From Wigglesworthia glossinidia endosymbiont of Glossina morsitans morsitans (Yale colony) (GTDB lineage: Bacteria; Pseudomonadota; Gammaproteobacteria; Enterobacterales; Enterobacteriaceae): DNA of 32,000 bases. Under the pieces are notes generated by a model. It was not told where the DNA came from, did not search any database, and saw nothing but the letters and a program-made list of their open reading frames with translations. Below are positions 13,276 to 17,023 of the stretch, one piece after another. The stretch's first letter is position 1, and every line of letters starts with the position of its first letter. The stretch lies in NCBI RefSeq assembly GCF_000247565.1, contig NC_016893.1, forward strand, positions 270,001 through 302,000. The letters are read 5' to 3'. Made by a program: the position numbers and the translations under genes.

Positions 13276-13587
13276 ATGTATGCAATTTTTGAAAGCTATG
13301 GAAATCAATACCGAGTGAAAAAAGGCGAAGTTTTATTTTTAAATAAAATTTCCGCTAATTTAGGGAGTGTTATTGAATTTGAAAAAATTTTGTTGTTATC
13401 TAAAGATAATCAAATATTTTTAGGACAACCGTATGTTCAAGGAGCACGAATATTAGCTAAAATCAATAATCATATTCAAAAAAAAAAAATTAGAATTATT
13501 AAATTTTCTCGAAGAAAACATTTTAGAAAAAATCAAGGATATCGACAAAAATTAACGAGTTTAAAAATAATAGATATTTGTTATTAA
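13276..13587 (+). CDS. rplU: 50S ribosomal protein L21
   Basis: 103 aa (MYAIFESYGNQYRVKKGE...), collinear with E. coli L21. It is followed 11 nt later by rpmA. Confidence 0.96.
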   Translation: MYAIFESYGNQYRVKKGEVLFLNKISANLGSVIEFEKILLLSKDNQIFLGQPYVQGARILAKINNHIQKKKIRIIKFSRRKHFRKNQGYRQKLTSLKIIDICY

Positions 13588-13598
13588 AAAGGTAAAAT

Positions 13599-13856
13599 AT
13601 GGCACATAAGAAAGCTGGAGGTTCTACAAGAAATGGTCGAGATTCAATCGGAAAAAGATTAGGGATCAAATTGTTTGGAGGACAGAAAGTGCACCCAGGA
13701 AACATTATTATTCGACAAAGAGGTACTAAATTTCATCCTGGATTTAATGTAGGATGCGGTAAAGATCATAGCTTATATGCTTTAAAAAAAGGCGTAATAT
13801 ATTTTAATAAAAATAAGAAAAACAAAAAAAAATTTGTCAATGTTCTCGTAGAATAA
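13599..13856 (+). CDS. rpmA: 50S ribosomal protein L27
   Basis: 85 aa ([50 protein letters not shown]), nearly identical in pattern to E. coli L27. Confidence 0.97.
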
Positions 13857-13956
13857 AATAAAAAAAATTTTATTGATATTGAAAACATCTAAAATATATT
13901 AGAGTTCATTTATTTTAAAAATTAATTTTATTTCAGTTTTTAATATTGGAGAAAAA

Positions 13957-14973
13957 GTGCATTTTTTAGATTACGCGACAATTTTAGTACAAGGAGGCAA
14001 AGGTGGGGATGGACTTATAAGTTTTAGAAGAGAAAAATACATCCCTTATGGAGGTCCAGACGGAGGTAATGGAGGCGATGGAGGAAACGTTTGGATTTGT
14101 TCGAATAAAAACTTGTATGACTTATCTAAATGTGTTTCTCGCAATTCTTTTATTGCTCAAAATGGACAAAACGGAAAAAAAAATAATGCTTCTGGAAAAA
14201 AAGGAAAAGATATCGTTATTTCAGTACCGTTAGGTACAAAAATATTTTACATGCGTAATACACACGAAATTGTTCTTGGAAATACAAAATATCATGATGA
14301 AAAATTTATTGTTGCTAGAGGCGGAAAACATGGTTTTGGTAATTATCATTTTAAATCTTCCGTTTGTAGAGTACCAAGAAAATGTACTACCGGTGAACCG
14401 GGAGAATCAAAAATAATTAACTTAAATTTTACTCTTTCAGCAAATGTTGGATTATTTGGACTTCCTAACACCGGACGTTCTTTATTTATGAAAACTGTTT
14501 CACGTGCAAAACCTAAAATTGCACACTATCCATTTACTACAAAATTACCATATTTAGGGGTAGTAAAAATAGATAAAAATAAAAAATTTATATGCATCGA
14601 TATACCGAGCATTAAGATAGACCACTATGCAACAAATGCAAATAAGTTTAGTAAACATTTGCAAAAATGTAAATTAATTTTGCATTTCGTACATATAGAT
14701 TGTTCAAACATAAAAGATACTATTAAAAATATTGAGATCAGCATAAAAATAATAAAAAATTTTGGAAATTTAAGATTAAAAACTTTTTGGTTGATTTTTA
14801 ATAAATCAGATCTAATCTGCAATAAAAATCTATTTATGAAACAAGCAAAATTTATATCATATTCTACAGGATATCAAGATAACTTTTTTGTGATTTCTTC
14901 TCATACAAAACACAACTTAAATTTATTATTGCAAAAAATTTATGACTTTATTTTAGTTAAAAATAATAGATAA
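13957..14973 (+). CDS. obgE: Obg-family GTPase (ObgE/CgtA) with atypical G-domain motifs and no C-terminal tail
   Basis: GTG start at 13957 preceded by GGAG at 13948-13951. The N-terminal glycine-rich Obg fold is well conserved (FRREKYIPYGGPDGGNGGDGGNVW). The G domain is collinear with E. coli ObgE (AKPKIAHYPFTT, NKSD), but G1 reads GLPNTGRS and G3 reads DIPS. It follows rplU-rpmA as in E. coli. Confidence 0.88.
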   Translation: MHFLDYATILVQGGKGGDGLISFRREKYIPYGGPDGGNGGDGGNVWICSNKNLYDLSKCVSRNSFIAQNGQNGKKNNASGKKGKDIVISVPLGTKIFYMRNTHEIVLGNTKYHDEKFIVARGGKHGFGNYHFKSSVCRVPRKCTTGEPGESKIINLNFTLSANVGLFGLPNTGRSLFMKTVSRAKPKIAHYPFTTKLPYLGVVKIDKNKKFICIDIPSIKIDHYATNANKFSKHLQKCKLILHFVHIDCSNIKDTIKNIEISIKIIKNFGNLRLKTFWLIFNKSDLICNKNLFMKQAKFISYSTGYQDNFFVISSHTKHNLNLLLQKIYDFILVKNNR

Positions 14974-15037
14974 ATATTATTTTGATTTATTTAATTTAAT
15001 TAAAAGTTAATTTAATTTGAACTAATTTTTTTAAAAT

Positions 15038-16216
15038 ATGGAAAAAATATTTGACATTGTTATTGTTGGTGGAAGTATTATAGGAAGCAGTATAGCAATT
15101 AAATTGCATCAAGCAGGATTTTTAATAAAATTAATTGAAATGAAAACTCCATGTAGATTTATAAATAATCAAATTCCAGATTTTAAAGTTTTAGCTTTAA
15201 ATAATACTTCAATACAATTTTTACGCGAAATTAATGTATGGCAAAAAATTGAAAAAAAATTTTACACTAAATTCAAATACATTGAAACGTGGAAAGATCC
15301 TTTTTTTCCAATATACTTTTGTTCTGAAATTTTAAATAAATCTAAATTAGGCGTAATTATTGAAAATTACAGATTATATCAAGAATTATTAAATGTAATA
15401 AGTTCTAAAAAAATCAATGCTCAATACAATACATATTTAAAAAATATATGCTATCTTCCTTCAGAAAATCTTTGGAAAATTCATTATGACAACGAAAAAA
15501 CTATATTTAGTAGGATGATTATTGGTTCTGACGGACAAAACTCTTGGATTAGAAAAAAATCTGGTATACCTTATTTAAGTTTTCAATATAATCAAGCTTG
15601 CATGTTGATTATCGTAAAATTAAAAGTAAACAATAAAGATACCGTATGGCAATCATTAGATCCAACAGGTCCGAAAGCATTATTACCTTTATATGAAAAT
15701 TGGGCATTGTTGATTTGGTATGATAATCCTAATTACTTATATGAATTACAAAAAATGCCTAATCAAAAAATTGAAAAAAAAATCATAGAGAATTTTCCTA
15801 AAAAACTTGGACCAATACATTTATATAAACATAAAGTAGTTCCTTTAAAGTTTTTATATGGGTATCAATATGTTCAACAAGGACTAGCATTAGTAGGAGA
15901 TGCGCTGCATACTATACATCCATTAGCAGGACAAGGTGCTAATCTTGGTTTTAGGGATATAAAAATTTTGTCTGATTTATTAATTTCAGTTAAATCTGAA
16001 AAATATACATGGAATCACATATCAATATTAAAAAAATATGAAAAGAAATGTAGATTATATAATACAATTATGCAGTTTGGTATCGATACGTTTCGCTTAT
16101 TATTTTCTCATGATTCTATTTTAACTGAAAATATATGTAATCCTATTTTTAATGTAGCAGAATCTTCTAAAATATTAAAAAAAATATTAATTAAATATGC
16201 TTCTGGAATTTTTTAA
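15038..16216 (+). CDS. ubiF: FAD-dependent ubiquinone-biosynthesis hydroxylase, best match UbiF (UbiH/UbiF/UbiI family)
   Basis: 392 aa. By eye it matches recalled E. coli UbiF more closely than UbiH (QYNQACMLIIV vs QYAQSCMLISV; GPKALLPLYENWALLIWYD vs GPRAFLPLFDNWASLVWYD; GLALVGDALHTIHPLAGQGANLGFRD; C-terminal LIKYASGI vs ALKYALGL). Paralogue assignment is less certain than family assignment. Confidence 0.8.
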   Translation: MEKIFDIVIVGGSIIGSSIAIKLHQAGFLIKLIEMKTPCRFINNQIPDFKVLALNNTSIQFLREINVWQKIEKKFYTKFKYIETWKDPFFPIYFCSEILNKSKLGVIIENYRLYQELLNVISSKKINAQYNTYLKNICYLPSENLWKIHYDNEKTIFSRMIIGSDGQNSWIRKKSGIPYLSFQYNQACMLIIVKLKVNNKDTVWQSLDPTGPKALLPLYENWALLIWYDNPNYLYELQKMPNQKIEKKIIENFPKKLGPIHLYKHKVVPLKFLYGYQYVQQGLALVGDALHTIHPLAGQGANLGFRDIKILSDLLISVKSEKYTWNHISILKKYEKKCRLYNTIMQFGIDTFRLLFSHDSILTENICNPIFNVAESSKILKKILIKYASGIF

Positions 16217-16220
16217 ATAT

Positions 16221-17023
16221 TCAATAATTTATCAAAATAAAAATAATATATGCAATTAATAATCTATATATAGCAAAAAATATTAAAGATGTACGATATA
16301 GAATAGGAATTAAAAATTTTCCTAAAAAAAACGATACTAAAAAAGATGTAAAAATACTTAAAACTATCAAATAAGCATTTATTATAAAAAAAGAAAAATT
16401 TTTATAAGTATCTATTATAAACGTTCCACAAGCAATAACAATAAATAATATTAAAGAAAATTCAAATGCAACTTTTCGTGTAAATCCCAAAATTAATCCT
16501 GTAGCAACTGTAATTCCTAGTCTAGAAATTCCAGGAAAAAGAGAAAAACACTGAATAAATCCAATAATTGATGCTTGATAATAATTTATTTGATATATAT
16601 TTGTTACTTTTTTTGTGTCAGATTGTAATAATTCTGAAATAATAAGTACTATTGATCCTGCTATTAAGTGATATGTTATATGTTCAGGTAAATATATTTT
16701 TTGTATATCATGATAGAAGTACGTTCCTGTTACAAAAACAGGTAATAATCCTAAAATACAGCATACAAAAATTTTGAATAGTTTTTTTTTTCATTAAAAT
16801 TACTTAATAAGTAATATGTTGTATTTTTTATATTATTTTTAAATATTAAAAATAAAGATAGTACTGGACCAATTTGAATCATTATTGCTAAATTCTTAAT
16901 ATTTTCTAAATTTATATTGAATAAAAAATTCATTAAAATTAAGTGTCCACTAGACGAAATAGGCAAAAATTCAGTAATGCCTTCTACGATGCCTAATACA
17001 ATTGAAATTAATATTTGCTTCAT
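16221..17023 (-). pseudogene. uppP: Undecaprenyl-diphosphate phosphatase (BacA/UppP), reading frame broken by a 1-nt shift in an A10 tract
   Basis: The N-terminal ORF 16751..17023 carries VEGITEFLPISSSGH. My manual translation of the minus strand shows UppP homology continuing in another frame directly after the A10 run (KLFKIFVCCILGLLPVFVTGTYFYHD...IGFIQCFSLFPGISRLGITVATGLILG), running into listed ORF 16221..16490. One extra A (A11) fuses everything into about 267 codons (E. coli about 273). Confidence 0.85.
16782..16791 (-). repeat. A10 homopolymer (T10 on + strand) at the uppP frameshift site
   Basis: Counted directly in 'gaatagttttttttttcatt'. The frame changes exactly across this run. 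Confidence 0.9.

Follow-up and report, generated by a model that had tools for sequence, protein, structure and literature searches.

The only Obg GTPase (obg, also obgE or cgtA) of the Wigglesworthia glossinidia endosymbiont of Glossina morsitans morsitans carries arginine at the Walker A lysine and serine at the G3 glycine (K172R and G216S, E. coli numbering). The observation is confirmed as real, reflecting neither error nor chance, and by sequence it makes the protein a candidate pseudo-GTPase: an Obg orthologue that departs from the G1 and G3 motifs of its family. The two replaced residues are those of the gamma-phosphate site. Constraint has also been lost on the relay (switch II, D246, E265, T174 and linker residue E155), and purifying selection remains on the guanine- and Mg-binding core and on most of the rRNA-binding N-terminal fold. 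Loss of sensor and relay, with guanine and Mg contacts kept, is the pattern expected of a protein that binds without switching. At a probability of about 55%, the favored reading is that Wigglesworthia Obg binds nucleotide weakly, has ceased to switch, and serves as a placeholder on the 50S subunit through its N-terminal domain.

The gene and its G1 and G3 residues

The gene lies at 13957..14973 (+) of the window (the whole stretch of 32,000 nucleotides analyzed) and encodes 338 aa from a GTG start, with a Shine-Dalgarno-like GGAG (13948..13951, +) 5 nt ahead. Its product scores 339 bits against TIGR02729 (cut-off 280). An N-terminal Obg fold (residues 1-160, 13957..14436, +; PF01018) precedes a TRAFAC G domain (residues 161-338, 14437..14970, +; PF01926) whose GTPase fold is predicted to be intact, an architecture also recovered by fold search. 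Orthology extends to position, with rplU (bL21; 13276..13587, +; TIGR00061) and rpmA (bL27; 13599..13856, +; TIGR00062) upstream in the ancestral rplU-rpmA-obg order. A profile search of the 719,535-bp genome returned obg as its single match, and no second, canonical copy was found genome-wide. The closest solved structures are those of E. coli ObgE. Retention of the fold is indicated by this search and by an alignment-based model (mean pLDDT 85.8, switch regions of low confidence; best fold matches 5m04 and 7bl2), which leans on a mostly canonical alignment and is uninformative on pocket chemistry; single-sequence prediction gives a pLDDT of 32.

A scan for promoters and terminators around obg found nothing above shuffles. 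Contigs from RNA libraries span the gene, which is coverage alone and not a sign of transcription. Here yhbE, which in E. coli lies between rpmA and obgE, is absent. A UbiF-like hydroxylase gene lies directly 3' of obg (window 14973-15038), and uppP/bacA is in two frames at window 16221-17023 (-); the same break occurs in the closest sister (L118:12343-13148) and may be a slippage-type frameshift.

The G1 P-loop (14458..14484, +) has Arg for Lys in GxxxxGK[ST], at residue 174 (CGT, 14476-14478; E. coli K172), and also carries T174L (14482-14484; E. coli numbering). At G3 (14599..14610, +), Asp is kept and Gly is replaced by Ser at residue 218 (AGC, 14608-14610; E. coli G216), and the conserved glycines of the following switch II are gone. 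The first-pass annotation had reported both codons, retained G2 (YPFTT) and G4 (NKSD) motifs, a replaced switch II and a 338-residue protein, all of which sequence and alignment bear out. Its gapless alignment with E. coli holds up to G3 and fails beyond, where switch II is two residues shorter.

The Arg codon is covered by four sequencing runs, each of a separate study, and none shows a variant base there. The Ser codon is also well covered in three of these runs, and the X19 contig stops 12 bases beyond it. The proposed alignment of Obg from sister strains and other endosymbionts finds the pair in every Wigglesworthia sequence covering the sites, that of W. brevipalpis (L003) included: R172 in 6/6 distinct sequences, and S216 in all five that reach G3. 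Among rows from outside the genus, Lys is present in 143/143 and Gly in all but one (Tachikawaea). Agreement of independent runs, together with presence throughout the genus, rules out an assembly error or a strain-specific lesion, and the gene likewise has neither the broken frame nor the neutral evolution of a pseudogene. General decay of Walker A motifs in the genome is also ruled out, as every other authentic motif alignable across three Wigglesworthia genomes keeps Lys.

The codons indicate the age of the change. Arg172 is encoded by AGA in the deeper Wigglesworthia lineages and by CGT in the morsitans symbiont and its closest sister. The founding Lys-to-Arg step would thus have needed only one transition, A>G in AAA, and CGT would be a later, synonymous drift that marks age and not several steps to Arg. 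The earlier argument that AAA to CGT required several substitutions is therefore incorrect; its conclusion, that the change did not arise recently by chance, stands, the changes being old and genus-wide. Judged from the alignment, K172R and G216S predate the split of the sampled tsetse symbiont lineages. Retention of Arg172 is not in itself proof of selection on Arg, since it is not significant against the genome background, in which 71% of AGA-coded Arg sites stay Arg in all three Wigglesworthia genomes.

Erosion and conservation within the protein

The replacements are part of a wider erosion. The switch II loop (14611..14649, +) differs in sequence and length between Wigglesworthia lineages and evolves roughly neutrally: in two deep comparisons its dN is close to dS or exceeds it (dN/dS of 1.1 and 2.3, over 13 codons only). 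Near-invariant D246 is His here (14692..14694, +) and Gln or Asn in other lineages; in G5 (14896..14901, +), Ser is kept and Ala has become Ser. Near-invariant sites lost in Wigglesworthia number 12-14/44 in the G domain versus 4-6/52 in the N domain (Fisher p 0.009-0.07, in a table mixing differently ascertained sets), and 30 other symbionts have lost 0-5 in the G domain. Lost in all three main lineages are K172, T174, A212, G216, A221, G224, G226, G228, D246 and E265 in the G domain, and T55 and E155 in the N domain and linker. The first reading of the lesions had captured K172R, G216S and switch II; it had missed T174, D246 and E265, as well as the recurrence of the pair elsewhere. In E. 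coli, the KD for GDP rises from 0.44 to 115 uM with T174I and from 0.44 to 4.1 uM with D246G, E265K shifts binding away from GTP, and ObgE without its C-terminal tail has a tenfold lower affinity for GTP (PMC6982127).

The residues that contact guanine and Mg have a different history. G2/switch I (14527..14541, +) reads YPFTT and keeps the Mg-binding Thr (E. coli T193) in all lineages, and the G4 NKxD (14800..14811, +) is canonical in all of them. Identical in three lineages are G166, N169, G171, S173, T193, D213, N283, K284, D286 and S314, along with the derived R172 and S216. Of 14 canonical nucleotide- or Mg-contact positions, 12 are identical in the three lineages, as compared to 40% three-way identity for the G domain (binomial p ~6e-4). 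This conservation favors retained binding.

The per-domain dN/dS comparison suggested at first pass returned values typical of purifying selection against the closest sister (0.146 for the gene, 0.17 for the N domain and 0.13 for the G domain; neighbor-gene median 0.16). At depth, where dS is probably saturated, the G domain evolves faster than the N domain, with dN/dS of 0.38 and 0.56 versus 0.20 and 0.40, and dN at genome percentiles of 92-98 versus 71-77. Taken together, these ratios indicate that the gene is under purifying selection, which has continued alongside loss of the G motifs.

The N-terminal domain, previously called highly conserved, is only moderately so (49% identity to the enteric reference, the dN percentiles above, and K31 and R76 lost), although 48/52 near-invariant positions are kept. 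On the contact list of PMC4028186, the PTC-contacting residues R24, R25, K27, K81 and R136 are kept or conservatively changed, and R139 is kept; the changes at PTC contacts are K31>Y, R76>N and R82>K. The acidic C-terminal domain is indeed absent, as had been remarked, but this is ordinary in endosymbiont Obg, most of which is 331-345 aa long.

Recurrence in other bacteria and genome context

The K172R and G216S pair is not confined to Wigglesworthia. A scan of 185,579 genomes for the exact pattern, spacing included, was not exhaustive and missed Schneideria; it returned 51 matches in which Arg takes the place of the Walker A lysine: 10 true Obg proteins (2 from Wigglesworthia), one YchF, and the rest DRG-like in appearance. 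Among 401 family genomes, the sole further in-frame Obg match was Ca. Schneideria nysicola, where K172R, G216S, T174A and a shortening of switch II are common to all three strains. The pair also occurs in an enterobacterial symbiont (P0289), an environmental cluster (P0373) where it is fixed in 12/12 members, and one Omnitrophota genome (L067). These last three lineages have a near-normal switch II, which suggests that the pair may be a working alternative arrangement and counts against the favored reading. A metagenome scan found no relevant locus.

Replacement of G216 with Lys kept (G216S or G216A) is found in Tachikawaea, another symbiont genus, Ca. Sneabacter and most of the Omnitrophota sampled. 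G216 is replaced in 7/11 Arg172 lineages versus 7/143 representatives with Lys (p 3e-6; merging the three symbionts gives 1e-4), a comparison that is indicative, as the sets were ascertained differently. In two matches, L050 and L070, K>R stands by itself; each is a single metagenome-assembled sequence and may be an error. As replacement of G216 is tolerated beside Lys and K172R comes mostly on top of it, the suggested order is G216 first, with K172R tolerated thereafter.

The occurrences in the environmental cluster and in Omnitrophota look like independent origins. Wigglesworthia and Schneideria possibly share theirs by ancestry, an answer that depends on taxon sampling: RpoB+RpoC with the AT-rich long branches rejects the two as one clade (p-AU 0.029), the same proteins without these branches join them (support 90), and the Obg tree without motif columns gives p-AU of 0.40-0.46 for the alternatives.

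Several neighboring patterns appeared in these searches. In ~30 Omnitrophota relatives (L181-L210, L067), the best Obg match has mostly ExxS or ExxA at G3 and not DxxG; in its N-terminal fold, loop 1 is altered and loop 3 looks shortened, and most of these matches score below the TIGR02729 cut-off; a deviant Obg across this clade is possible. Roughly 40 DRG-like loci (L042-L092) have Arg in place of the Walker A lysine and mostly Pro or Ala at the G3 glycine; such proteins turn up repeatedly, in Bathyarchaeia, Asgard archaea, WOR-3, Planctomycetota and Chloroflexota. Several small symbionts (L240-L242, L244-L247, L249) exhibit mirror-image erosion, having lost 7-17 near-invariant N-domain positions, PTC-binding loop residues among them, with canonical G1 and G3. 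A 0.3 Mb symbiont (G379, 97% complete) gave no Obg match at E <= 1e-25, and its congener has one; its obg has possibly been lost or split.

Wigglesworthia genomes lack rsfS, darP/yjgA, era and relA/spoT, of which the absence of relA/spoT was already known (PMC3153485). Two other small symbionts without relA/spoT, rsfS and darP have canonical G1 and G3. Loss of ppGpp signaling or of RsfS/YjgA is thus rejected as a sufficient cause, and loss of relA/spoT, rsfS and darP is at most permissive. For era, no match exceeded the TIGR00436 cut-off in three Wigglesworthia genomes (G000, G001, G002), and the gene was found in two other small symbionts. Era, a GTPase of 30S assembly, is otherwise deeply conserved. 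Co-change in 23S rRNA was also rejected, the cores of the sarcin-ricin loop, A-loop, P-loop and L11-binding region matching canonical short patterns.

Other assembly genes are altered as well. Both der and engB are split by frameshifts (G000:C1:184528-185909 and 646689-647180); der is split in G001 too, and engB apparently in G002. Domain 1 of Der has Ala at the G3 glycine, such that two cooperating 50S GTPases are without that glycine. In W. brevipalpis, rlmE (rrmJ) is in two frames (G002:C1:274171-274727), and it is intact in the other two genomes.

Binding, switching and known systems

In TRAFAC GTPases, the Walker A Lys and the G3 Gly contact the gamma-phosphate, and switch II relays this contact towards the Obg fold; replacement of the Walker A Lys by Arg usually leaves binding in place and strongly lowers hydrolysis. 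A rival reading, held at well under even odds, is that Arg172 and Ser216 together make up a different kind of gamma-phosphate site in a compensated, active GTPase, which would cycle between GTP and GDP more slowly, but sufficiently. Recurrence of the pair and its fixation in the environmental cluster and the three Schneideria strains speak for this, as do the kept switch II of several such lineages, the conserved S173, T193 and D213, and ExxS/ExxA at G3 in the Omnitrophota relatives; the intrinsic GTPase activity of Obg is low in any case (PMC4028186). In Wigglesworthia, however, switch II is unconstrained and variable in length, leaving a hydrolysis signal without a conserved relay; T174, D246 and E265 have gone as well; and the general effect of the Walker A change is to depress hydrolysis, all of which renders continued cycling doubtful. 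The opposite extreme, a nucleotide-free pseudo-GTPase whose G domain serves only to anchor the protein structurally, with the sarcin-ricin loop on one side and the stalk base on the other, would account for the stacking of affinity-lowering changes (K172R, T174L, D246H, no C-terminal tail) and the high percentile of G-domain dN at depth, and E. coli alleles that do not bind nucleotide can support growth when induced. It is nonetheless quite unlikely, given that three lineages with only 40% three-way identity across the rest of the G domain have the same NKxD, S173, T193, D213 and S314.

Slightly deleterious drift (Muller's ratchet) acting on a dispensable, decaying obg is less probable again. 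The elevated G-domain dN/dS at depth, the missing era, relA/spoT, rsfS and darP, and the general erosion of Obg in very small symbiont genomes are consistent with it. Yet no complete lineage has a broken frame, comparison with the closest sister gives a dN/dS in line with that of neighboring genes, even the most eroded 0.2-0.3 Mb symbionts still keep Lys, and the losses cluster in the switch relay instead of falling at random.

The favored reading, a weakly binding placeholder that does not switch, would proceed as follows. Guanine nucleotide would still be loaded, probably weakly, and would stabilize the fold; the difference between GTP and GDP would no longer be converted into a conformational change, with little or no hydrolysis. 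The protein would dock on the late pre-50S particle through its N-terminal domain, hold the place while H89 and the PTC mature, and come off through weak affinity or competition and not through hydrolysis. The need for such a hydrolysis-free way off the particle counts against this reading, as do the ObgE activities that depend on hydrolysis. G216S, tolerated alone in several lineages, would have come first, followed by K172R and finally by switch II erosion; the losses of ppGpp signaling and RsfS/YjgA may have permitted this sequence and do not explain it. The initial proposal that switching was lost and N-terminal function kept is probably right in this respect, with changes that are old and genus-wide and a switch II that is unconstrained; a dead G domain is the wrong description, as the guanine and Mg residues are conserved.

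Obg has been described as essential in all bacteria tested. The need of a GTP cycle for this role is disputed, as non-binding E. coli alleles can support growth and other assays require hydrolysis, and the sole-copy Obg of Wigglesworthia is a natural test of it. The lineages with G216S only, with the pair and an intact switch II, and with the pair and an eroded one form a graded natural allelic series. A broader proposal, held tentatively at somewhat under even odds, is that a sole, non-hydrolyzing Obg builds the 50S subunit in Wigglesworthia and several unrelated bacteria, reached via G216S and then K172R, such that the essential role would be that of a hydrolysis-independent placeholder and the GTP switch a droppable regulation. 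This bears on ribosome assembly in minimal cells, Wigglesworthia being without Era as well, and on the soundness of the Obg GTP pocket as an antibiotic target. No description of the change in Wigglesworthia or Schneideria Obg was found in the literature searched, which mostly excluded subscription journals.

Of the known systems, E. coli ObgE/CgtA (TIGR02729; PDB 5M04, 4CSU, 7BL2) is the orthologue, with the same two-domain fold, a place after rplU-rpmA, ~44% identity, intact G2 and G4, and most PTC-binding basic residues shared. It differs in that Wigglesworthia Obg has K172R, T174L, G216S, D246H, E265I, an eroded switch II and no acidic tail, in a genome without RelA/SpoT, RsfS and YjgA. ObgE is a placeholder for H89/PTC maturation, and changes in its switches have been proposed to trigger its release (bioRxiv 10.64898/2026.02.15.706057). 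Without nucleotide, its affinity for 50S is weak, and it is the basic loops of the N-terminal domain that drive binding (PMC4028186); the activity of ObgE in assays of heterologous rescue and with puromycin needs GTP hydrolysis (bioRxiv 10.64898/2026.05.13.724932). In B. subtilis Obg, contact of the Walker A Lys with the gamma-phosphate has been modeled (PMC2935376).

Schneideria nysicola Obg (UAJ65668.1 and two sister strains) is alike in K172R (AGA), G216S, loss of T174, a short switch II and E155N; unlike Wigglesworthia, it keeps D246 and E265, is more mildly eroded and has another gene neighborhood. The laboratory ObgE mutants T174I, D246G, N283I and D286Y have lowered or abolished nucleotide binding; two of them lie at positions that are also changed in Wigglesworthia, and some still support viability: N283I and D286Y, with no measurable binding, support viability as the sole copy (K268I background, plasmid-induced; PMC6982127). 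They are, however, engineered single changes in the K268I background, and K172R and G216S are not in the set. A functional analogy for the favored reading is offered by TSR1, an inactive BMS1-family GTPase of the pre-40S particle (PMC9723619): a ribosome assembly factor with a GTPase fold that works without GTPase activity. TSR1 is eukaryotic, of another family, and a paralogue beside an active BMS1, whereas Wigglesworthia Obg is the sole copy of an essential family.
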